DNA of 64,000 nucleotides from an uncultured Candidatus Saccharibacteria bacterium (GTDB lineage: Bacteria; Patescibacteriota; Minisyncoccia; Phycocordibacterales; UBA918), in the NCBI GenBank assembly GCA_964350735.1, contig CAYGKO010000002.1, forward strand, positions 26,134 to 90,133, written 5' to 3'. This document shows positions 3,383-42,655 of the stretch, in pieces (the first letter of the stretch is position 1; every line of letters starts with the position of its first letter). The position numbers and the translations under genes were made by a program. A model generated the notes under the pieces. The model saw only the letters and a program-made list of their open reading frames with translations. It did not search any database and had not been told where the DNA came from.

Positions 3383-4590
3383 TGGCTGATAAACCAGTTA
3401 CATTTGAGATAATTAAGCGTCAAAAAGGCACTCTTGGCCGAGCTGGTGTTATTCATACTCCTCATGGTGATATCGAAACACCAGCTTTTGTGTGTGTAGG
3501 AACTAAGGGGACGGTAAAGAGTCTCAAGTCAGAAGATATGCGTGACTACGTCGGTAATCAAGTGGCACTTGCCAATACCTACCATCTTTTTTTGCAGCCA
3601 GGCGATGATGTAGTGAAAGAAGCGGGCGGTTTACACAAATTCTCTAACTGGGACATGCCGACTATTACTGATAGTGGGGGATTTCAGGTATTTAGTCTGG
3701 GAGCAGCTTTTGGGAAAGGAGTGACTAAATTTGCGCAAAATGCGGCCGAAGCTGATGCAGTCGCTGAGAAGTCGGGGCTTAATGTCTACTCACAAGAACT
3801 GGCCAGTGAGCATGGTAAGCTCTGCGTGATTGATGAAGAAGGGGTTACCTTCACCTCACATATCGACGGTTCAATGCACCGCTTCACCGCCGAACGTTCA
3901 ATTGATATTCAACACAACATTGGTGCGGACATTATTATCGCTTTTGATGAGTGTACGAGTCCAACTGCCGATAAGGAGTATCAGATCGAAGCGATGAACC
4001 GTACTCATCGCTGGGCGAAGCGTTCAATTATGGCGCATAAGCAGAACTATGACGCCTTAAAGAAGCAGGGTCTCTACGGTGTGGTACAAGGTGGACGACA
4101 TCTTGATCTACGGGCGGAGAGTGCTACCGCGCTGGCTGATATGGATTTTGATGGTTATGGGATTGGCGGCAGCTTCACCAAGGCTGACTTGGGTGAAGCA
4201 GTGCGTACCGTGAACGAAATTTTACCGGAAGACAAACCACGGCACTTGCTTGGAATCGGAGAACCCGGAGACATTGTGGAAGGAGTAGCGCTTGGCTGTG
4301 ACACGTTTGACTGTGTCGCTCCCACCCGTATCGCTCGTACCGGAACTATTTACGAAACTACCAATGCCGGGCACCAGCGAACCAACCTGTTAAATCAAAA
4401 ATACATCCGTGATTTTAGTAAGCCTGACGAATCATGCGATTGTTACGTCTGTACCCACTACACCAAAGCCTACCTAGCCCACCTCTTCCGCTCCAAAGAA
4501 ATGCTTGGTCCGCACTTAGCGTCACTGCATAATCTTTATTACATCGTGAATTTCACTAAGAAACTAAGGGAACAAATATTAACAAGCTGA
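3382..4590 (+). CDS. tgt: queuine tRNA-ribosyltransferase (tRNA-guanine transglycosylase)
   Basis: TGT-family motifs: the FDCVAPTRIARTG segment and the C-terminal zinc site CDCYVCTHYTKAYLAHL. The start overlaps the FKBP stop (TAATG). Confidence 0.88.
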   Translation: MADKPVTFEIIKRQKGTLGRAGVIHTPHGDIETPAFVCVGTKGTVKSLKSEDMRDYVGNQVALANTYHLFLQPGDDVVKEAGGLHKFSNWDMPTITDSGGFQVFSLGAAFGKGVTKFAQNAAEADAVAEKSGLNVYSQELASEHGKLCVIDEEGVTFTSHIDGSMHRFTAERSIDIQHNIGADIIIAFDECTSPTADKEYQIEAMNRTHRWAKRSIMAHKQNYDALKKQGLYGVVQGGRHLDLRAESATALADMDFDGYGIGGSFTKADLGEAVRTVNEILPEDKPRHLLGIGEPGDIVEGVALGCDTFDCVAPTRIARTGTIYETTNAGHQRTNLLNQKYIRDFSKPDESCDCYVCTHYTKAYLAHLFRSKEMLGPHLASLHNLYYIVNFTKKLREQILTS

Positions 4591-4645
4591 TATTTTTGAG
4601 GTATTGTTATAAGTAAGGAGATCCTCCTTTATAATTTATCTACTC

Positions 4646-4798
4646 ATGGGAGTAGAGAAGGTAGGGATAGGTGTTATGGGCGGCTATGTTATTTCAGCAA
4701 TTATCGGAGCGGTTGTATTCTTCGCTCTGACAGGAGTTCCTCTGACTATGGTCGTAGGAGCTCTTGCCGGAGCTATTGGATATCGACTTGGCAAATAG
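4646..4798 (+). CDS. small glycine-zipper membrane peptide (50 aa; possibly GlsB/YeaQ/YmgE-like)
   Basis: My own translation: MGVEKVGIGVMGGYVISAIIGAVVFFALTGVPLTMVVGALAGAIGYRLGK, with two short hydrophobic segments and GxxxG repeats. An alternative in-frame start lies at 4676. Confidence 0.35.
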   Translation: MGVEKVGIGVMGGYVISAIIGAVVFFALTGVPLTMVVGALAGAIGYRLGK

Positions 4799-4804
4799 CA
4801 CTTC

Positions 4805-4836
4805 GCGCGGCAGCAAGTTCAGCTGCCGCGTTTTTT
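4805..4836 (+). terminator. rho-independent terminator (gcggcagc-aagttca-gctgccgc + TTTTTT)
   Basis: Perfect 8-bp GC stem followed by a T6 run immediately after the small peptide ORF. It occupies the region the ORF track assigned to the uvrB N-terminus. Confidence 0.7.
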
Positions 4837-4920
4837 GTGTTTCGTTATAACGTTTGCAGTGTGCGCTTGGGTGCCCGATCTACCTTTTTTTATATTTTAA
4901 ATCTAAGGTATAGTACGGGG

Positions 4921-6951
<2,031 letters not shown>

Positions 6952-6967
6952 CATGCTAGGATAGGGT

Positions 6968-7327
6968 ATGAAAAAAATTGCCCTTATCGAAGATGATCAG
7001 TTTATTCAGGATTTTGTGTCTGGTAAATTGATAGAAGCTGGTTATGCCGTCACTGTCTGTAGTGATGGTGAAGCTGCTGTGGGTCATATTATCGAACAAA
7101 TACCGGATGTGGTTTTACTTGATCTTGATCTGCCAAACTTGTCTGGTCATGAAATTCTTAAAGTGTTACAAGTAGAAGAAAGTACTAAGAACATACCCGT
7201 GATTATTTTTTCCAATAACGATGACCCAGATTTGAAAGAGAAAATGATCGCCGCTGGAGCGAAAGATTTCTATATGAAAGCGGTGACTAACCCTGCAGAA
7301 CTCATCTCAAAGATTGAGTCGGTGTAA
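6968..7327 (+). CDS. response regulator, receiver (REC) domain only
   Basis: CheY-like fold: acidic pocket DD near the N-terminus, phospho-acceptor Asp in VVLLDLDLP, conserved K in the AAGAKDFYMK region. No output domain. Confidence 0.8.
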   Translation: MKKIALIEDDQFIQDFVSGKLIEAGYAVTVCSDGEAAVGHIIEQIPDVVLLDLDLPNLSGHEILKVLQVEESTKNIPVIIFSNNDDPDLKEKMIAAGAKDFYMKAVTNPAELISKIESV

Positions 7328-7380
7328 GTTATCGACAGGTGTTGAAAATATATGAGTAGAAGGGGCGTATACTATAGGAA

Positions 7381-10353
7381 ATGAGTCCGGCAAAAAAGGC
7401 AACGGCCCGAAAAACCGCACCTAAAAAACGAGCGGCATCTACGCGTACAACCAAGGTGACGCCAAAGAAGCGGGTGACCAAAAAACCGGCAGTTACAACT
7501 GTGCGTAAAAAGGTGGTGAAAAAGGTGATTAAGAAAAAGATCCTGGTTAAAAAAACCGCACCAAAAGCCGAAAAAAAACTAAAACCAAGAAAAAAGGGAA
7601 CTATTTCAAATACTTTTGCAAAAGGTGACAAGAAGCCTTTTTCGTTCCCACAATCTGTTTCGTTGGCTATTATTGCCATGCCTAAACTGCCGGTTGATAT
7701 TGACACCCTCGCAGTCAGTATGGCTCGTTACGGGGGACTTTCGATGGTTGTCGTAGGGGCCTGTTTTTCTTTGTTTTATGCCCAAGCAGTTGGGCTTCAA
7801 ATGCCAAGTGTTTCAAATATAGCCGAAGTTATTAGCGGTGTTGCTGGAAGCACAACCGAAACAAGTACCGGAGCGAACACTGCTTCAGTGACTATAAATA
7901 AAACCCCGGGAGCTAACTTTGAAGTATCTGGGCAAAATCCTAGAAGTCGTGATGTTCAGGTACGCATTGATGTACCTCTGGCCAAACGAGTCACGGTGTT
8001 TGCATTTCATACTGATACGCAAGAGTACATTTTGTTAGGACAAGCTTCGATGGAAGGATCAGACCAGTGGAGTCTGATTTGGGACACTACAAAATACGTT
8101 GATGGAGCATATAAACTAAAAGCGGTTATTTTAAATGAGTTTGGTTCCTATGATGGATTTAGCCAAAAACAATTTGATGTCAGTAATCAATCAGAAAGTA
8201 ACGATGATCAAACTGAAATAGATGAAGAAGAGGTTTCAGATGCTGCTCACGAAACAACTGAAGAGGAATCTCATTCGGAAACTGAAGCTGGGTCGCTAGA
8301 AACTACTGATACAACTGAAGGTTTAGAAGATGTTTTCAACCAAACTGAGACTGACGACACTGTAAAGCTTCCTAATGATCCTGTGGATTTACTTACTTCG
8401 GTCGCGCCAGATAAACTGGAAGCACTAATTTCTTTTTCACCTAAGGAAGCGGGGGTGGTGTCAGTGCTTGTTCGTCCTAATTATAGTGCAGATACTGTGT
8501 TACTTAAGGCAATTCATCGTGAAACAGGGACGTTGTATGATTTAGGTAAAACTACAAATACTGGGGATAGGCGATGGCGCTTTGATTGGCAAACAGCTAA
8601 CAAAGATGATGGTATCTACGCCGTGTATGCAGCTGTGAGTCTTGATGGAGAAAGTTATCTATCGAAAAAATTTAACTTTGAAGTAAATAAAAATTTCACT
8701 ACCGTCGAAGCGGTATCACTTGAAAGTCCAGATGAGAAGATTGAGACGACCGCACCGAATGCTGTTCCTGCAGAAGAAGCGGTAGTACCAACTGCAAATA
8801 ATTTCGCAGTGGCACTTACTATTCCGGTTCGTGATGTCTACACGGGACTAGTTGAAATCATTATCGCTGCGCCAGAGGCATCATTTGTTGAGCTGTATTC
8901 TCGTAATAAATCTGCTAAAAACGAACGCTTTTCAGGCTTGGCGAAAAAGGTAGGAGTTGATACCTGGAGATTTGTGTGGGATACAACTAATGTACCAAAT
9001 GGTGAATACGTACTTAAAAGTAAGGTGAGAGCCAATGGTCAGCTCATGGAAAAGACTTCTTCGGTACTTCGAGTAGAAAATAAAATAATTGCCTTTACCA
9101 CTGATACTGATGCAGTTAACGAAGCTCGACAAGAAGTCTTGAGCTCTAATGACTCTGCCGTTGAGCAGGTACGAGCAGCTGCCGAAGCTCTCACCGTAAG
9201 TGGTTCTGATGAGAGCGCTGCTGCGCCGGTGCAAAAAATTACACTATTGGAAAAAAGACGAATCGAAGAGCTGTCTCCAGCCAGGCTACTTGAAAGTTCA
9301 ATCCTGACAGTAGATGAATTTCCTGAGGCAATTGAATTAGATTCAGAGACTGAAGAAATTGTGGAAACTACAGTGGAAGATCTCTTCACTGCGTACCAGG
9401 AGCGGGTAAATGCTGTTATGCGGGGGGTGGCTTTGGCGGTACGTTCTGGTGACGAAACAGCAATTTCATTAGCTAAAAAAACAGTGGCTGACTTACGAGA
9501 AGATATCCTTTCGGAAGTACTTAACTCTGATGTATCAGCTGAACTTACGTCTTTCATTGATAATAGACTTTCCCGTGAGTTAGCTCGTTTAAAGGTACGT
9601 ACCGAGGCAGATGAAAAGCTAATTAATAACCGAGTCGATACCGATCTCTCAAAGGACTCGGACCAAGATGGGGTGACAGACTTTGACGAAATTAACTTGT
9701 ATGAGACTGATCCGCTGGTAGCGGACTCTGATAATGACGGTTTCAATGACGGAATTGAAATTCTAAGTGGTTACGATCCTCGTAATGCTTCAACTGAAGC
9801 TGTGGTTGAGTATGAGTCTCCAAAGAAGGCTGGTGTAGTACGTGAGGATTTATTTGTGATCGAATCTATTACCACACTTACTCCTGATAGTGCCTTATCT
9901 AGTAACAAAAAGACGCCCGAGGCAGTGATTAGTGGGCGAGCACTCCCAAATAGTTTCGTTACGTTGTATGTCTTCAGTAACCCCGTAGTGGTGACCGTGA
10001 AAACAGATGCTGATGGTAATTGGAGCTATCGGTTCGACAAAGAGATTGCAGATGGTACTCATGAAGTATATGTAGGAGTGACAGACAATGCTGGGCGGGT
10101 AGTGGCTAAAAGTGAACCAGTACGGTTTGTAAAGACGGCCGAAGCGTTTACTCCGGTAGATGCTGCTGAGAACGTTGCGGTTGCACAAACTGAAACCCAG
10201 AAGTCCCTTATTAGTTCCAGCTCAGTGCTGCTTATCGCTTCTGTTTCAGTTGTTGCTATTGGTTTAATTTTGATCCTCTTGGGTCTGCATTTACAAGGTC
10301 GCAAAGAAGATCATTTTATTTTTAGCGGAGAAAAAGACACTGCATCAGTATGA
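7381..10353 (+). CDS. large two-TM cell-surface protein with lysine-rich cytoplasmic N-tail and TSP3-like calcium-binding repeats
   Basis: Residues 1-80 are a KK/PAKK-rich basic tail. TM near SMVVVGACFSLFYAQAVGL. Long acidic/Thr-Ser-rich ectodomain with DSDQDGVTDFDE...DSDNDGFNDGIE (DxDxDG thrombospondin-type-3-like). C-terminal TM LLIASVSVVAIGLILILLGL. The 3' end overlaps the kinase start by 4 nt. Confidence 0.6.
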   Translation: MSPAKKATARKTAPKKRAASTRTTKVTPKKRVTKKPAVTTVRKKVVKKVIKKKILVKKTAPKAEKKLKPRKKGTISNTFAKGDKKPFSFPQSVSLAIIAMPKLPVDIDTLAVSMARYGGLSMVVVGACFSLFYAQAVGLQMPSVSNIAEVISGVAGSTTETSTGANTASVTINKTPGANFEVSGQNPRSRDVQVRIDVPLAKRVTVFAFHTDTQEYILLGQASMEGSDQWSLIWDTTKYVDGAYKLKAVILNEFGSYDGFSQKQFDVSNQSESNDDQTEIDEEEVSDAAHETTEEESHSETEAGSLETTDTTEGLEDVFNQTETDDTVKLPNDPVDLLTSVAPDKLEALISFSPKEAGVVSVLVRPNYSADTVLLKAIHRETGTLYDLGKTTNTGDRRWRFDWQTANKDDGIYAVYAAVSLDGESYLSKKFNFEVNKNFTTVEAVSLESPDEKIETTAPNAVPAEEAVVPTANNFAVALTIPVRDVYTGLVEIIIAAPEASFVELYSRNKSAKNERFSGLAKKVGVDTWRFVWDTTNVPNGEYVLKSKVRANGQLMEKTSSVLRVENKIIAFTTDTDAVNEARQEVLSSNDSAVEQVRAAAEALTVSGSDESAAAPVQKITLLEKRRIEELSPARLLESSILTVDEFPEAIELDSETEEIVETTVEDLFTAYQERVNAVMRGVALAVRSGDETAISLAKKTVADLREDILSEVLNSDVSAELTSFIDNRLSRELARLKVRTEADEKLINNRVDTDLSKDSDQDGVTDFDEINLYETDPLVADSDNDGFNDGIEILSGYDPRNASTEAVVEYESPKKAGVVREDLFVIESITTLTPDSALSSNKKTPEAVISGRALPNSFVTLYVFSNPVVVTVKTDADGNWSYRFDKEIADGTHEVYVGVTDNAGRVVAKSEPVRFVKTAEAFTPVDAAENVAVAQTETQKSLISSSSVLLIASVSVVAIGLILILLGLHLQGRKEDHFIFSGEKDTASV

Positions 10354-19854: not shown

Positions 19855-19930
19855 TGGTGGACTCGACAGGACTTGAACCCGCTACCTCCTCAGTGCAAAT
19901 GAGGCGCTCTACCAGATGAGCTACGAGCCC
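19855..19930 (-). tRNA. tRNA-Ala (anticodon UGC), CCA encoded
   Basis: The reverse complement gives GGGCTCGTAGCTCATCTGGTAGAGCGCCTCATTTGCACTGAGGAGGTAGCGGGTTCAAGTCCTGTCGAGTCCACCA. It has the G3:U70 Ala identity pair, anticodon-loop TTTGCAC and a cloverleaf alignment to E. coli tRNA-Ala(UGC). Confidence 0.85.
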
Positions 19931-35868: not shown

Positions 35869-36255
35869 ATGGCAGATCCACGTGCAGGTAAACCTTCATA
35901 TCGCTCACAGAAAATGAGAGCGGCGTACACCAAGTATATTGAAGCTGGGAAGTTGGCTGTTGGCTGCGCCCTTTGTGATAAAGAGGCAGACGGTGAGCTG
36001 CTAGAAAATTTCAATCTTTGGCAATTGGTAGACAATCGCTTTCCTTACGACACTATTACAGACACTCATCATATGCTGATGCCCAAGGCGCACATCACAG
36101 AAGAAGAACTTACGCCTGAACATCTGTCAGAACTCCGAGAACTGAAACAAACAATACTGAATGACCGTTATACTTTTATTTTTGAGACGCTACCTAATGC
36201 TAAATCAATACCCCCGCACCACCACCTACATTTGATTGTTGTCAAAAATCTCTAG
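35869..36255 (+). CDS. HIT-superfamily protein (histidine triad)
   Basis: C-terminal HHHLHLIV fits H-x-H-x-H-x-x. N-terminal CxxC (GCALCD), as in Hint-type zinc sites. Confidence 0.5.
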   Translation: MADPRAGKPSYRSQKMRAAYTKYIEAGKLAVGCALCDKEADGELLENFNLWQLVDNRFPYDTITDTHHMLMPKAHITEEELTPEHLSELRELKQTILNDRYTFIFETLPNAKSIPPHHHLHLIVVKNL

Positions 36256-37180: not shown

Positions 37181-37287
37181 TTAAATCCAGCGTCTCAATC
37201 CATACTTGTATTTACTAATTCTTTACATATCTTCAAATCAAGGCATAATGAAACCTCTGTTATTTACTAAGTACGTGAGGGATTGAT

Positions 37288-40056
37288 ATGCATAAAAAGT
37301 TTGATAATCAGGCGATTGAAAAGAAGTGGCAAGAGAAATGGGCGGCTAATGGTCTGTACGACGTAACTGAACGTGATACTTCTAAGGAGAAAGAGTACGT
37401 ACTGGTAGAACTGCCATACCCTTCGGGAAACCTGCATATTGGCCACTGGTACGCCTTTGGTGTGCCTGACATCTACGTGCGTTTCCAGCGTATGATGGGG
37501 AAGCAAGTGATCTACCCAATGGGCTTTGATGCCTTTGGTCTGCCAGCCGAAAACGCTGCCATAAAACGCGACATCAATCCTAAAGAGTGGACTGAAGGAA
37601 ACATTGAGTACATGAAAGAGCAGCTGGGCAATATGGGTAATTCCTATACCTGGAATATGACCGCTTCCACTACAGATCCCGACTATTACAAATGGACGCA
37701 GTGGATGTTCACGCAGTTTTTTGAGAAAGGGATTGCGTATCGTGGTAAAGGGAAAGTGAATTGGTGTCCTGGCTGCAATACTGTGATCGCAAATGAGCAA
37801 GTGCTGCCAGACGACACCTGTGAGCGCTCGGGTGACAAGATCGAGAAGAAAGAAATGCCGCAATGGATGCTGAAGATCACTGATTACGCTGACCGACTGG
37901 TAGATGATCTCGATGGACTTGATTGGCCAGAGCATATCAAAGAAGCGCAACGACAATGGATTGGCCGCTCAGAAGGGGCTGAGATTGATTTTAAGCTGTC
38001 TACTGATGATGCGATGACTGTCTTCACCACTCGCCCTGATACACTTTTTGGTGCCACCTACATGGTGCTAGCGCCTGAACACTCGCTAGTAACTAAGAAT
38101 AAAGACCAGATCTCCAACTGGGACGAAGTAGTACGATATATCGAACTAACCAAGCAGAAAGATGAGCAGGATCGTCTTAACGACACCAAGGAAAAGACCG
38201 GAGTGAAATTAGAAGGAATTACTGCTACCAATCCAGCTTCTGGAGAAGAAATTCCAGTCTATATCGCTGATTACGTCTTAGCTGGTTATGGAACCGGCGC
38301 GATTATGGCAGTACCCGCTCATGATGAGCGTGATTCGGCATTTGCAAAGAAGTTTGGTATTGATATTAAACAAGTTATTGAACCAGTTTCGGATCATCCA
38401 GTAAAAGCAATTGGTGCTTTTCTCATTGATGGCAATGGTGAAATATTATTGCAGAAGCGTACGGCAGATGCGCCGACTGGAGCGGGATTACATGGGATTT
38501 TTGGTGGCAGCATTGAATCAGGTGAGACAATGAAACAAGCTCTGGTTCGTGAAATTCAAGAAGAGTTAGAGATTGAAGTTGAAGAAAATAACATTCGTAT
38601 TTTATACTTTAAAGAGTCGCGTGAGCAAGGGAAAAACCTAGCCGCAGCTATCGTATCTGGTGTTGACTTTAGCAAAGCAATATTGCATGAAGGTGAAGCA
38701 ATTGTACGAGTAAAATCATTAGCTGAAATTGATAACAAGGATCGTAATCACATCTGGGAGACAGCTAATGACGATGATATTCATTCGCTATATTCTGGAG
38801 TAGGTGCTCTTTACAATTCAGCTGAATTTAACGGCATGAGTTCAGAAGAGGCTAAGAAAGCCATCACAGAGAAAGTGGGTGGGCGAATGACAAATACGTA
38901 TCGTCTCCGTGACTGGTCTGTCGGACGACAACGATATTGGGGGGTACCGATTCCGATTGTATATGATCCCGAAGGAAAGGCGCACCCAGTACCTAAAGAG
39001 CATTTGCCCTGGATTCTGCCGGAAGATGTGGACTTCAAACCGACTGGAGAACCACCATTAGCTAAAAGTGCTGAGCTGAAAAAACGAACTGAAGATATTT
39101 TTGGAGTCGGCTGGACGCCTGAAGTAGAAACTCTCGACACCTTCGTGGATTCTTCGTGGTATTTCATGCGGTATATCGACAATCAAAACTCAGAATCGCT
39201 CGCTAGCCTTGAGGCGCAGAAAGATTGGATGCAGGTGGATACGTACTTTGGTGGGGCTGAACACACCACCATGCACTTGCTGTATTCTCGCTTTTGGCAA
39301 AAAGCACTCTATGATCTTGGGGTCGCAGTACATGATGAACCTTATAAGCGACGAATCAACCGTGGACTCATTCTCGGTCCGGACGGGAACAAAATGAGTA
39401 AAAGTAAAGGCAATGTGATTGACCCAGACGAACAAGTGAAGTTAGTGGGTGCAGATGCGGTGAAGTTGTATCTCGGCTTCATGGGACCGTATGAAGGAAC
39501 CAACTATCCGTGGGACATGGGAGGTATTGCTGGCATCAGACGCTTCTTAGAGCGCCTAAATGGGCTTACAGGACACATTGTGGAAGCTGAACCAGTGCCA
39601 GTTACTAAACAAGTTCATAAAACTATCATTAAGTTGCGTGAGGACATTCCGCAGCATAAATTTAATACTGCAATCAGTGCGGTGATGGTGTTGGTGAATC
39701 TTATTGAAAAGGAAGGAGTTTCAAAAGAGTCATACCGGACTATTCTGCAAATGATGGCCCCATTGGCCCCGCATTTAACAGAAGAATTATGGGCTGATTT
39801 GGGAGAGAGTAATTCAATTCACCTTGAAAGTTTCCCCGAAGCAGATACAGCGTTAGCAAAAGATGAGCTAGTCACTATTGGAGTGCAGATTAATGGAAAA
39901 GTACGAGGTGATATTACTATTGCTCCTGATGCCTCTGAAGAAGAGGCTTTGGCTGCTGTAGCGGATGATGAGCAGCTGCAAAAACGCCTGACTGAAGGGG
40001 AGATGCAGAAAGTGATTTATAAAGCTGGAAAAATACTTAATATCATTGTTAGTTAG
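37288..40056 (+). CDS. leuS: leucine--tRNA ligase with an embedded Nudix-like domain
   Basis: HIGH (NLHIGHWYAF), CP1 editing domain (TTRPDTLFGATYMVLAPEH ... GTGAIMAVPAHDERD), YRLRDWSVGRQRYWG, KMSKSKGN and a C-terminal anticodon-binding region. About 140 extra residues sit between the editing domain and the LYNSAEFNG segment. Confidence 0.9.
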   Translation: MHKKFDNQAIEKKWQEKWAANGLYDVTERDTSKEKEYVLVELPYPSGNLHIGHWYAFGVPDIYVRFQRMMGKQVIYPMGFDAFGLPAENAAIKRDINPKEWTEGNIEYMKEQLGNMGNSYTWNMTASTTDPDYYKWTQWMFTQFFEKGIAYRGKGKVNWCPGCNTVIANEQVLPDDTCERSGDKIEKKEMPQWMLKITDYADRLVDDLDGLDWPEHIKEAQRQWIGRSEGAEIDFKLSTDDAMTVFTTRPDTLFGATYMVLAPEHSLVTKNKDQISNWDEVVRYIELTKQKDEQDRLNDTKEKTGVKLEGITATNPASGEEIPVYIADYVLAGYGTGAIMAVPAHDERDSAFAKKFGIDIKQVIEPVSDHPVKAIGAFLIDGNGEILLQKRTADAPTGAGLHGIFGGSIESGETMKQALVREIQEELEIEVEENNIRILYFKESREQGKNLAAAIVSGVDFSKAILHEGEAIVRVKSLAEIDNKDRNHIWETANDDDIHSLYSGVGALYNSAEFNGMSSEEAKKAITEKVGGRMTNTYRLRDWSVGRQRYWGVPIPIVYDPEGKAHPVPKEHLPWILPEDVDFKPTGEPPLAKSAELKKRTEDIFGVGWTPEVETLDTFVDSSWYFMRYIDNQNSESLASLEAQKDWMQVDTYFGGAEHTTMHLLYSRFWQKALYDLGVAVHDEPYKRRINRGLILGPDGNKMSKSKGNVIDPDEQVKLVGADAVKLYLGFMGPYEGTNYPWDMGGIAGIRRFLERLNGLTGHIVEAEPVPVTKQVHKTIIKLREDIPQHKFNTAISAVMVLVNLIEKEGVSKESYRTILQMMAPLAPHLTEELWADLGESNSIHLESFPEADTALAKDELVTIGVQINGKVRGDITIAPDASEEEALAAVADDEQLQKRLTEGEMQKVIYKAGKILNIIVS
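38386..38808 (+). other. Nudix-hydrolase-like insertion within LeuRS (aa 367-507)
   Basis: IGAFLIDGNGEILLQKRTADAPTGAGLHGIFGGSIESGETMKQALVREIQEELEIEV fits the Nudix box Gx5Ex7REUxEExGU except the terminal G is replaced by E. The equivalent E. coli LeuRS linker is about 20 aa. Confidence 0.6.
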
Positions 40057-40160: not shown

Positions 40161-41186
40161 ATGATCACATTTAAACCAAAACAAGCCACCAAACGACTTT
40201 TGTCGGTATTACCCGACCGAGCCCGTGACGTGCTAGAGAAGCGCTATGGTCTCGGCAAAGACGCTGATACTGCAACCCTGGAAGCGATTGGACAGACATA
40301 CGGTATTACTCGAGAACGTGTGCGACAGATTGAAAATTATGGTATTCAGTCCATCCAAAAATCAGATGTTTATGGTGAATTCCAGGCTATCTTTGAAGAA
40401 CTGCACGCTATCATTGACGAGCTTGGTGGAGGTCTCATTGCTGAACATATTCTCCTGGAAGAGATTGCAGCTGATCCAATCCTACGTAATCATATTTATT
40501 TCCTCCTCGTACTAGGCGATCCTTTCTACCGATCAAAAGAAAACCCTTCGTACTCCCACCGATGGTTTACTGAGAAGAAGATTGCTGACATAGTCGAAAA
40601 AGGCTTGAAGAGTGTTCATGCTTCTTTAGATCGTGATGAGCTTGTTTCAGAAGAAGAAATCCTAACTCGTTTTAAAAATGAACTGATTGAGTTAGCAGAC
40701 AAACATGATGAAAAAGTTCTCAAACGATGGCTCTTGATTTCAAAAGATATTGCTCCAAACCCGCTTGGAGAGTGGGGACACGCATCAAGTCCGAATGTTC
40801 GAGTCAAAGGAATTCGTGACTACGCGTATCTTGTAGTAAAGCGCCATGGTTCACCCATGCACTTCCGTGAAGTGGCGGAAGCAATTGAGGAACTGTTCAC
40901 TAAGAAAGCCCACACTGCTACTACTCATAACGAATTGATCAAAGATGGCCGTTTTGTATTAGTTGGACGAGGTCTATACGCACTGACAGAGTGGGGTTAT
41001 TCAGCTGGGGTGGTAAAAGATGTGTTACGAGACATCTTAGATACACATGGTCCGCTATCACGGGAAGAAATCATTGATAAAGTTCGCAAAGAACGTTACG
41101 TGAAAGACAATACTATCGTTGTTAATCTCCAAGATATGAACTTGTTTAAGCGACTTAGTAACGGAACCTACGTGGTGGCTGAGTAG
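40161..41186 (+). CDS. DNA-binding protein with N-terminal sigma-70 region 4 and C-terminal HARE-HTH
   Basis: The N-terminus LPDRARDVLEKRYGL...TLEAIGQTYGITRERVRQIE aligns to RpoD region 4.2. The C-terminus PMHFREVAEAIEEL...KDGRFVLVGRGLYALTEWGY matches the HARE-HTH of the RNAP delta subunit. Confidence 0.6.
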   Translation: MITFKPKQATKRLLSVLPDRARDVLEKRYGLGKDADTATLEAIGQTYGITRERVRQIENYGIQSIQKSDVYGEFQAIFEELHAIIDELGGGLIAEHILLEEIAADPILRNHIYFLLVLGDPFYRSKENPSYSHRWFTEKKIADIVEKGLKSVHASLDRDELVSEEEILTRFKNELIELADKHDEKVLKRWLLISKDIAPNPLGEWGHASSPNVRVKGIRDYAYLVVKRHGSPMHFREVAEAIEELFTKKAHTATTHNELIKDGRFVLVGRGLYALTEWGYSAGVVKDVLRDILDTHGPLSREEIIDKVRKERYVKDNTIVVNLQDMNLFKRLSNGTYVVAE

Positions 41187-41257: not shown

Positions 41258-42655
41258 ATGTTAGAGCATCTTTTTGGTAATCCAAAAGATATTGCAGCCA
41301 AGATACCCATTTTGGCTTTTTTCATTCGCTTTGTTTCTTCTAATGACTCAGACTATGGTGGATTTGTAGCCATTCTTTCTGTGGTGCTTTTATTTTACGG
41401 TCTCGGATTTACTGACATTTCCCAAGCGCAAGTTTTCTCTATTGTTATCGCACTCACTCCACTCTGGCTTACTTGGTATATCTTTGTAAATTTCTTTGAT
41501 AAATGGTCAGAGTACACTGGTAAGAAATTTGGTTTATATAACGGCAGGACTACTTTGCGCATCAATCTTCCCCAAGAGGTATTAAAGTCTCCTGAAGCTA
41601 TGGAGTTCGTAATTTCTCAAATTCATAACACGGCTAATCCCGACAACTTAATGCAGACCTATTTACAGGGTAAACGTCCATTAAATTTTAGTTTCGAATT
41701 AGTTTCCATTGGTGGAGATGTGCGTTTTTATGCAAACCTACCAACTAGTAAAACAAAAGCTGCTTTTGAAGCAAACATGTATGCCCAATATCCTGGGGTT
41801 GAAATAGTCGAAGAACCGGTTGATTATGCAGCTGAAATTGGACTCGATAGTGACTGGGAGTGGTTTAGTTGTCATATGAGAAAGAAAAAGGACGAAGTAT
41901 TTCCGATTAAAACATATATTGATTTTGGACTGGATAAGCTCCCAAAAGAAGAAGAGAAAGTAGACCCAATGACACCAATGCTAGAAGTACTTGGTGGTGT
42001 TGGTCCATCAGAGCGTTTATATATTCAGTACATCTGTACACCTTTTCGACCATCAAGTTTTTCAAATGGACAATTAATGTTTGGGGAAGGATCTGGCTGG
42101 GATAAAGGAGTGACAGCAGCTCTAAATAAAATTATGAACCGCGATCCAGACACGAGGCAAGCTATAGACAGTGGGAACTCTGAAGAAGTGGCTCGACTTA
42201 CTCAAGGTGAACGAGATGCCGTCGCAGCAATGGAAAGAAATGCGGGTAAGTACGCCTATAACGTTGGTATCCGCTGGGTATATGCATCTCGCCCAGGGCA
42301 TTTCGCTGGTGATCGGATCAATCCGATTATTCGGTCGTTTAGTCAGTATGACATTATCAGCGATATTAGAAATCAAATTGGTGTAGCCTGGAGAACAGAC
42401 ATTGATTACAAAGACTTGATCCCCGGTTCATACAAGAAAATTGAAGCACTTAAAGTGCAGGAATTAAAAGAGTACAAATTGAGAAAATACTTTAATAAAG
42501 GGGGCGCAGACGGTATGAAGATATTTACAGCCGAGGAGCTAGCTACCATGTTTCATATTCCTGGTCAGGTTGCATTTACTCCTACCCTAAGTCGTGTTCC
42601 ATCTACTCGAAGTGAAGCGCCAAATAACTTACCGGTTGGAAATTTACCTGAATAA
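41258..42655 (+). CDS. hypothetical protein: N-terminal 3-TM region plus a soluble domain of about 380 aa (low GC)
   Basis: No recognised domain. Ends in the motif EELATMFHIPGQVAFTPTL. Confidence 0.4.
   Translation: MLEHLFGNPKDIAAKIPILAFFIRFVSSNDSDYGGFVAILSVVLLFYGLGFTDISQAQVFSIVIALTPLWLTWYIFVNFFDKWSEYTGKKFGLYNGRTTLRINLPQEVLKSPEAMEFVISQIHNTANPDNLMQTYLQGKRPLNFSFELVSIGGDVRFYANLPTSKTKAAFEANMYAQYPGVEIVEEPVDYAAEIGLDSDWEWFSCHMRKKKDEVFPIKTYIDFGLDKLPKEEEKVDPMTPMLEVLGGVGPSERLYIQYICTPFRPSSFSNGQLMFGEGSGWDKGVTAALNKIMNRDPDTRQAIDSGNSEEVARLTQGERDAVAAMERNAGKYAYNVGIRWVYASRPGHFAGDRINPIIRSFSQYDIISDIRNQIGVAWRTDIDYKDLIPGSYKKIEALKVQELKEYKLRKYFNKGGADGMKIFTAEELATMFHIPGQVAFTPTLSRVPSTRSEAPNNLPVGNLPE

Follow-up and report, generated by a model that had tools for sequence, protein, structure and literature searches.

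The window analyzed here is a 64,000-nucleotide stretch of contig CAYGKO010000002.1 from an uncultured Candidatus Saccharibacteria bacterium. On its forward strand, which also carries all features below unless stated otherwise, it encodes leuS, the gene for a leucyl-tRNA synthetase (LeuRS) of 922 amino acids (37288..40056). This uninterrupted open reading frame (ORF) encloses a second enzyme, a nested Nudix hydrolase domain of 141 residues (aa 367-507, 38386..38808). The domain is supported by a match to the Pfam NUDIX model PF00293, by a profile of its own family and by its AlphaFold2 (AF2) fold. A sequence-only reading of this DNA had described an otherwise canonical LeuRS with extra residues at 38386-38808, and the coordinates, flanks and sequence it gave are correct. 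We refer to the nested domain as a cassette, for reasons that the comparison of related genes makes clear.

The synthetic and editing motifs of the host protein are intact. The protein reaches 882 bits with the bacterial LeuRS equivalog model TIGR00396 (leuS_bact), whose cut-off is 548. Among 113 aligned LeuRS, H50, G52 and H53 of the HIGH motif (aa 50-53, 37435..37446), the stretch YRLRDWSVGRQRYWG (aa 538-552) and K702 to S706 of the KMSKS motif (aa 702-706, 39391..39405) are invariant. The first part of the CP1 editing domain (aa 222-366, 37951..38385) was recognized by its PF13603 match and in the translation. It includes the Thr-rich editing motif TTRPDT (aa 247-252, 38026-38043) and the editing-site pair H345-D346 (D346 at 38323-38325), and T247, R249, T252 and D346 are again invariant. 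The last part of CP1 (aa 508-537, 38809..38898) starts with LYNSAEFNG and continues as a helix and a return strand, placed by AF2 at residues 519-529 and 533-537; it aligns with residues 374-450 of Thermus thermophilus LeuRS. The AF2 model of the full-length protein has a predicted local distance difference test score (pLDDT) of 89.9, and its best Foldseek match is E. coli LeuRS (5omw_A, TM score 0.78/0.83).

The cassette interrupts CP1 between FGIDIKQVIEP (ending at aa 366) and LYNSAEFNG (from aa 508), about 20 residues past Asp346, and stands in place of T. thermophilus LeuRS residues 366-373. The PF13603 model is split at this point, with aa 222-370 covering profile positions 1-146 of 185. 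The corresponding stretch is 156 residues long in the window LeuRS versus 26-80 in insert-free relatives, and the GC content of the insert is 0.41 versus 0.46-0.48 in the flanks. Translation of 38506..38574 gives the Nudix box GSIESGETMKQALVREIQEELEI (aa 407-429), which reads G407-x5-E413-x7-R421-E422-I-Q-E425-E426-L-E428-I429. The sequence-only reading had reported the REx2EE glutamates and, as the sole departure from GX5EX7REUXEEXGU, a change of the last Gly to Glu (position 428); the translation confirms both. Glu428 is invariant in all 11 aligned members of the window's cassette family, at a position that we take not to be a metal ligand. Further downstream, the HEGE motif (aa 467-470, 38686..38697, from the translation) contains the acidic residue E468, which is conserved at 90% or more across 39 diverse cassettes and aligns to the HE of "HEHQALVW" in NudG (2rrk). 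We assume that E468 is equivalent to Glu98 of MutT.

A NUDIX profile search of residues 367-507, proposed as a check in the sequence-only reading, gave a clear match. The insert alone matches PF00293 with an E-value of 8.8e-14 and 52.1 bits (48.7 bits for the whole protein; gathering score 21.1), in an alignment limited to the N-terminal half of the model. When 39 LeuRS inserts are combined into a profile of their own, its alignment to E. coli NudG runs over the full length (2rrk, E 5.9e-16), and its further matches in the PDB are MutT-related proteins, NudI, MutT (1e-13) and hydrolases of diadenosine tetraphosphate (Ap4A). The AF2 model of the insert alone (pLDDT 87.9) is a complete Nudix fold, and within the full-length model all blocks of the insert except two loops have pLDDT values of 83-94. 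With the insert model, Foldseek gave 515 PDB matches (E<=0.001). Every one of the 50 listed is a Nudix protein, and the best full-length fold match is MutT-8-oxo-dGMP (3a6t, TM score 0.70/0.77 over 123 columns, root mean square deviation 2.6). The NCBIfam equivalog models for MutT (TIGR00586, 43.1 bits versus 97.9), NudG (PRK10546, 42.3 versus 156) and NudI (32.1 versus 95) all score below their cut-offs, so the domain resembles nucleoside triphosphate (NTP) pyrophosphatases and cannot be filed as an ortholog of any of them. In sum, this canonical LeuRS contains, in line, a complete Nudix domain that is MutT/NudG-like (residues 367-507).

This architecture is widespread and occurs in at least two distant LeuRS lineages, one from Patescibacteria and one from gut metagenome-assembled genomes (MAGs). 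An entry identical to the window LeuRS is present in the database. Many relatives of 918-952 aa carry PF00293, and those with names are labeled by their submitters as Nomurabacteria, Kaiserbacteria, Pacebacteria, Parcubacteria or Patescibacteria; four NCBI-named insert-bearing relatives are annotated merely as "class I tRNA ligase family protein." Among the top 120 homologs 83 bear the insert, a share that is biased upward because ranking by bit score favors insert-bearing proteins. A scan of GTDB species representatives (one genome per species), made with a single-protein query across the insert junction, yielded 80 loci, and 66 of them have a Nudix domain at the same LeuRS site. About 30 of these 66 are MAGs, many of gut origin, which carry their submitters' own labels of Bacilli, Mycoplasmatota, Tenericutes, Clostridia, Muribaculaceae and Bdellovibrionales. 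The LeuRS core of this gut lineage is about 50% identical to that of the window in the N-terminal part and about 40% in the C-terminal part, and the gut inserts that were read out have canonical Nudix boxes. The insertion had been suggested to be specific to a lineage, and it is indeed present in certain lineages only. The distant lineage that bears an insert at this site has a Nudix domain there too, and not a non-Nudix linker of the same length. The insert alone, used as query in a word-indexed homolog search, found no matches, and the relatives were recovered with full-length LeuRS and a hidden Markov model profile. The insert alignments lack any conserved stretch of 7-10 columns.

Closely related leuS alleles can differ in the domain. 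In the gut lineage, the sequences flanking the site are 99.7% and 97.9% identical between the LeuRS of locus L041 (940 aa, with Nudix) and proteins of 799 aa that lack the module (P0272 and P0275). The DNA of L041 and of L081 (the contig of P0275, which is near-identical to P0272) is 98-100% identical over more than 5 kb, with the sole exception of a 453 bp cassette in place of a 30-bp linker. In Patescibacteria, the closest pairs with and without the insert (P0038/P0041 and P0085/P0098) have 96% identical cores, and the DNA alignment of L084 and L085 has a clean gap of about 411 bp at the site.

In other pairs the cassette has been replaced. P0063 and P0109 share 97% identity in the core and 19% in the insert. 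The corresponding DNA (L082 versus L083) is 88-100% identical in the gene and flanks (88-96% in leuS, and 99-100% over about 2.3 kb downstream, L082 ~3600-5850), and falls to 39-58% only across aa ~347-527. Two further pairs show the same pattern (P0064/P0114, core 94% and insert 20%; P0054/P0065, core 93% and insert 18%). In the reverse case, P0082 and P0109 have inserts that are 85% identical in cores that are only 80% identical. The window LeuRS itself differs in this way from its nearest relative, P0002, with 87% identity in the core versus 29% in the insert (about 80-86% versus 32-53% for the DNA); the P0002 cassette falls just under the Pfam threshold (20.4 versus 21.1).

Across 3403 pairs, identity in the core and identity in the insert are uncorrelated (Spearman rho 0.036), which rules out co-divergence of cassette and LeuRS. 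The cassettes form 21 clusters at 40% identity or more, and that of the window has 23 members. A rough neighbor-joining tree of 120 core sequences implies 26 or more changes of insert state; this tree is crude, and our conclusions on presence, absence and swaps rest on the pairwise identities and DNA alignments. Exchange presumably runs through the conserved flanking LeuRS codons. A search for border repeats or target-site duplications around the cassette found only an 11-nt chance repeat. The window LeuRS has no Hint, splicing or homing-endonuclease Pfam domain that would indicate an intein or homing element, and the residues at the insert junctions are Pro-Val and Ala-Leu, not Cys, Ser or Thr as in inteins. 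The module is dispensable and exchangeable, and it behaves as a cassette rather than an integral part of LeuRS.

Despite this turnover, the catalytic residues are kept. E422, E425 and E426 occur in 83 of 83 inserts, G407 in 82, R421 in 75 and E413 in 73; at position 428, 56 inserts have G and 21 have E. The overall identity of the other inserts to that of the window is only 13-38%, and between cassette families only the metal-binding residues are conserved. The motif [RKA]ExxEE is retained in 222 of 234 Nudix cassettes from 214 LeuRS-like proteins, and a catalytic Glu has been lost in a few (L019 "REVEEK," L022 "RELLEK" and L054 "REIEKT"). We calculated the ratio of nonsynonymous to synonymous substitution rates (dN/dS; Nei-Gojobori) for pairs with the same, vertically inherited cassette family. 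In the gut lineage pair L041/L087 it is 0.151 for the cassette and 0.094 for the LeuRS core, and in the Patescibacteria pair L088/L089 it is 0.068 and 0.040. These cassette values (0.07-0.15) rule out fast drift as the source of the low insert identity. Purifying selection acts on the cassette. Given the conserved metal-binding residues and low dN/dS, the module is a selected protein domain whose metal-binding residues are constrained, and from its sequence it is probably a catalytically competent Mg2+-dependent hydrolase.

Nudix is not the only enzyme nested in sister LeuRS proteins. The first CP1 hairpin (window aa 238-242, about 37999-38013) holds a Ham1/ITPase domain (PF01725) in P0014 (locus L001), P0092, P0093 and P0102, and an alpha/beta Ser-hydrolase (PF06821) in P0053; P0014 has both Ham1 and the Nudix cassette in one LeuRS. 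Further toward the C-terminus lie a HAD phosphatase-like domain (HAD_2) in P0175 (654-808) and P0168, in both of which it is combined with Nudix, an alpha/beta-hydrolase in P0246 (787-967) and, just before the anticodon-binding domain, a strong Ham1 (197 bits) in P0216 (984-1167). Additional Nudix copies also occur, as in P0132 (677-821). Nudix is present two or three times in some LeuRS (P0121-P0125, P0132), with up to three per chain in P0121 and P0122. The LeuRS with extra nested domains (P0175, P0168, P0246, P0216, P0132 and P0141) are very long, at 1141-1344 aa, and lengths of 1283-1344 aa are reached by some. Ham1 and MutT-type Nudix proteins are both pyrophosphatases of non-canonical NTPs. 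Separately, a leucyl-aminopeptidase (Peptidase_M17) chain, P0160 (1318 aa), has two GNAT domains and a Nudix domain.

The order of genes around leuS that is common to relatives is YchF, DUF5671, leuS, a Sigma70_r4/HARE-HTH protein and DUF8128. In the window, leuS is directly followed by a gene for a 341-aa protein with Sigma70_r4 and HARE-HTH domains (40161-41186) and then by one for a 465-aa protein (41258-42655), whose relatives are annotated as DUF8128 and which has no Pfam match itself. Both downstream genes are kept in the related Patescibacteria L082, L083 and L086; L085 has the same downstream order, but with a 445-aa protein that has no Pfam match on record. The DNA around leuS is mosaic in the L041/L081, L082/L083 and L084/L085 comparisons, where stretches of 99-100% identity lie beside others of 81-96%, a pattern that suggests frequent homologous recombination at leuS. 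A promoter-like site upstream of leuS (TTTACA-16-CATAAT, 37222..37249, 10 of 12 matches) is weak evidence, as sites of this kind are no more numerous in the region than expected from shuffled sequence. No Rfam leader or riboswitch was found at leuS, and a tRNA-Ala(TGC) gene (19855-19930, reverse strand) is the only RNA gene detected across the whole 64 kb, with no other Rfam family at or above its gathering score. About 1 kb upstream of leuS, a 128-aa ORF (35869-36255) ends in PPHHHLHLIVV, whose HxHxHxx pattern resembles the histidine-triad (HIT) motif of nucleotide hydrolases. We considered it as a HIT-family protein on account of its HHHLHLI motif and rejected this, as it has no Pfam match at E<=0.01 and no PDB sequence match at E<=1.

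Of 89 loci, just 3 have a stand-alone Nudix gene near leuS, and a general neighborhood link is thus absent. The three genes encode proteins of about 132-146 aa and lie beside cassette-bearing leuS genes, directly upstream in L088 (1-399) and L089 (1-399) and about 0.8 kb upstream in L017 (836-1273); in the L088 protein the box is degenerate (RALAEE). In the gut lineage, the cassette-bearing leuS of L087 is followed by a gene for a Zeta-toxin-like kinase (3414-3823), and L081 has a gene with a Fic domain (6964-7761) some 1.5 kb downstream of its leuS allele without the cassette; both may be coincidental.

We consider it somewhat probable that the dispensable module acts as an autonomous nucleotide pyrophosphohydrolase that is tethered to LeuRS. 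The Nudix module would sit on a short two-strand stalk in a CP1 surface loop, as an optional accessory cassette that is passed on, lost or swapped by recombination via the conserved LeuRS flanks, while selection would maintain a working metal-dependent hydrolase. It would act alone on a soluble nucleoside-diphosphate-X compound, with a Mg2+ site formed by Glu422/425/426 (plus Glu468) that would split the pyrophosphate bond. Candidate substrates are non-canonical or oxidized (d)NTPs, dinucleoside polyphosphates made by aminoacyl-tRNA synthetases (aaRSs) and (p)ppGpp-type nucleotides. What LeuRS would chiefly contribute, in a streamlined genome, is constitutive expression together with a permissive scaffold. 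We infer both the substrate class and the independence from the LeuRS reaction cycle. Sanitation of the nucleotide pool is favored on the basis of the MutT/NudG-like similarity and the parallel nesting of Ham1. Turnover of Ap4A and other dinucleoside polyphosphates (NpnN) by the module is possible.

Several points weigh against this interpretation. All NCBIfam equivalog scores lie far under their cut-offs (MutT 43 versus 98, NudG 42 versus 156), some cassette families look more RppH-like, and the residue that we take to match Lys39 of MutT is Ser408. A plain house-cleaning role does not obviously explain the fast turnover of cassettes, nor the choice of LeuRS as host with up to three copies per chain. 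The module may also be functionally coupled to tRNA.

A less probable explanation is that the cassettes are driven by conflict, as interchangeable hydrolases that serve as countermeasures at a domain that binds the tRNA 3' end, with a diversity born of an arms race. They would deblock tRNA CCA ends modified by toxins (e.g., 3'-pyrophosphorylated), or destroy nucleotide toxins, alarmones or LeuRS inhibitors. Strain-level presence and absence, non-orthologous replacement and lack of co-divergence are typical of diversifying or frequency-dependent selection, and the contrast of L082 and L083, 88-96% identical in leuS while the downstream ~2.3 kb is 99-100% identical, fits the same picture. The site is also suggestive, since CP1 binds the tRNA 3' end. 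The toxSAS toxins block aminoacylation by pyrophosphorylating the CCA end of tRNA (bioRxiv 10.1101/2021.04.30.441581; PMC11559606), and (p)ppGpp is converted to pGp by MutT and NudG, the closest families, through cleavage of its 3'-diphosphate (PMC5845004). The joint occurrence of Nudix and HAD phosphatase domains in P0175 and P0168 and the existence of other aaRS-enzyme fusions (isoleucyl-tRNA synthetase with a GNAT domain, NCBIfam NF040702) point in this direction as well. All of this is circumstantial. PADLOC yields only the generic Nudix candidate PDC-S07 (135-position model, 43 bits, level with MutT), no toxin or defense genes are consistently adjacent, strong purifying selection and no positive selection is seen within cassette families, and Ham1 has no obvious role in tRNA repair. 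We regard it as a rather unlikely proposal that the CP1 editing domain of streamlined bacteria is a docking platform for interchangeable Nudix, HAD, alpha/beta-hydrolase and Ham1 cassettes kept by conflict-type selection. If true, it would constitute a hitherto unrecognized layer of immunity of the translation apparatus, in the form of polymorphic in-frame modules of an essential gene.

Slightly more doubtful still is an accessory activity integrated into LeuRS, in which the Nudix domain would hydrolyze a by-product or intermediate of the synthetase (Ap4A or Ap3A from Leu-AMP and ATP, or an adenylate-like compound) for local clean-up, pre-transfer proofreading or signaling. The module does lie inside the editing domain, about 20 residues past D346, aaRSs are the main cellular source of Ap4A according to reviews, and the cassette profile matches Ap4A hydrolases over their full length (1kt9, 4.3e-13; NUDT2 3u53, 9.2e-13). 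Furthermore, position 442, on the strand after the Nudix box, is conserved as Tyr (55 of 83 inserts) or Phe (13 of 83). This recalls the specificity tyrosine of the ApnA hydrolase subfamily, part of the X-loop that comes after the Nudix box (PMC5389931). Counted as sequence positions only, Tyr440/Phe441 of the window are at +11/+12 after the box and the Tyr of other cassette families at about +17/+18. However, the best profile and fold matches are NTP pyrophosphatases rather than Ap4A hydrolases, aminoacyl-adenylates are not nucleoside-diphosphate-X substrates, and between cassette families only the metal-binding residues are conserved. The sequence-only reading had proposed just such an added proofreading or signaling part of the LeuRS mechanism, and here the comparative data speak against it. 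Alleles with core identities of 96-99.7% exist with and without the module, and the natural cassette-free alleles make an obligatory proofreading role hard to reconcile. Non-orthologous Nudix domains are swapped in near-identical LeuRS, and unrelated hydrolase folds (Ham1, HAD, alpha/beta-hydrolase) occupy other LeuRS loops. In combination, the alleles with and without the module, the swaps and the unrelated hydrolases indicate an optional accessory cassette and not an integrated editing step.

It is improbable that the insert is non-catalytic or decaying, whether as a spacer with a structural, regulatory or tRNA-binding role or as a neutral passenger, in frame and nearing loss. The dispensability of the module, the Glu in place of the last box Gly in the window's family, the few cassettes without a catalytic Glu (L019, L022 and L054) and the position of the closest relative, P0002, just under the Pfam threshold would all fit such a state. 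Against this stand the retention of REx2EE in all 83 inserts and in 222 of 234 cassettes at so low an overall identity, the conserved E468, the low dN/dS and the confidently predicted fold. Lastly, an assembly, frameshift or gene-fusion artefact, which an uncultured-type genome and the slightly lower GC of the insert might bring to mind and which the sequence-only reading had raised, is ruled out for practical purposes by the intact ORF, by the same in-frame architecture in dozens of independent assemblies (NCBI, JGI, ENA and Logan) and by the 861 member sequences of one cassette-bearing cluster.

The sequence-only reading knew of no described LeuRS with an in-line Nudix module, and our full-text literature searches found no paper describing one. 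A 2017 survey of the Nudix clan makes no mention of tRNA or synthetase (PMC5389931). Insert-bearing LeuRS sequences are already in public databases with precomputed PF00293 matches. Accessory domains of aaRSs and Nudix hydrolases are each known, and the surprising element is the behavior of the cassette. Domain accretion in aaRSs is associated mainly with eukaryotes, and bacterial LeuRS is regarded as having a fixed architecture. Here a loop of a bacterial LeuRS editing domain accommodates a whole enzyme, and this loop is a recombination-accessible cassette site at which the module is gained, lost and replaced between strains under purifying selection. Hydrolases of four different folds, and as many as three copies of Nudix, can be housed in LeuRS. 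The natural pairs of alleles with and without the module are ideally suited to experiments. The findings raise the testable question of what links nucleotide hydrolases to LeuRS in reduced genomes, be it for sanitation, Ap4A or alarmone turnover, or repair of tRNA ends.

Canonical LeuRS (E. coli 4AQ7/5OMW, T. thermophilus 1H3N) have the same catalytic, editing and anticodon-binding elements as the window LeuRS, to which they are 35-36% identical, but only an 8-residue loop (T. thermophilus 366-373) where the latter holds a 141-residue enzyme domain. The LeuRS structures listed in our fold search have about 620-880 residues and lack the module, and no LeuRS structure from the fold or the sequence search has the length needed to hold it. 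MutT, NudG (Orf135) and NudI share with the window domain the fold, the REx2EE box, the downstream conserved Glu in an hEG/HE motif and LLxxR before the box. They are stand-alone proteins of about 130 aa, whereas the window domain is nested in another enzyme, has Glu for the last box Gly and has Ser rather than Lys after GG. The Nudix Ap4A hydrolases (human NUDT2, C. elegans 1KT9) also share the fold and are significant profile matches, though not the best ones. In known systems they are separate proteins, and the conceptual link to LeuRS is that aaRSs make Ap4A.

Fusions of aaRSs with accessory domains, such as NF040702 ([quoted passage not shown]) and those of eukaryotic domain accretion, likewise join an aaRS to an enzyme that modifies small molecules. 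The LeuRS cassette differs in being nested in a CP1 loop, whereas the domain in NF040702-type fusions is presumed to be appended at an end, in being a Nudix domain (elsewhere Ham1, HAD or alpha/beta-hydrolase), and in being polymorphic at the strain level and exchanged between alleles. Like inteins and other in-frame insertions, the cassette is present in some alleles and absent from others at one fixed position in an essential, conserved gene. Unlike inteins, it is a conserved enzyme, has no border repeats and is presumably kept in the mature protein.

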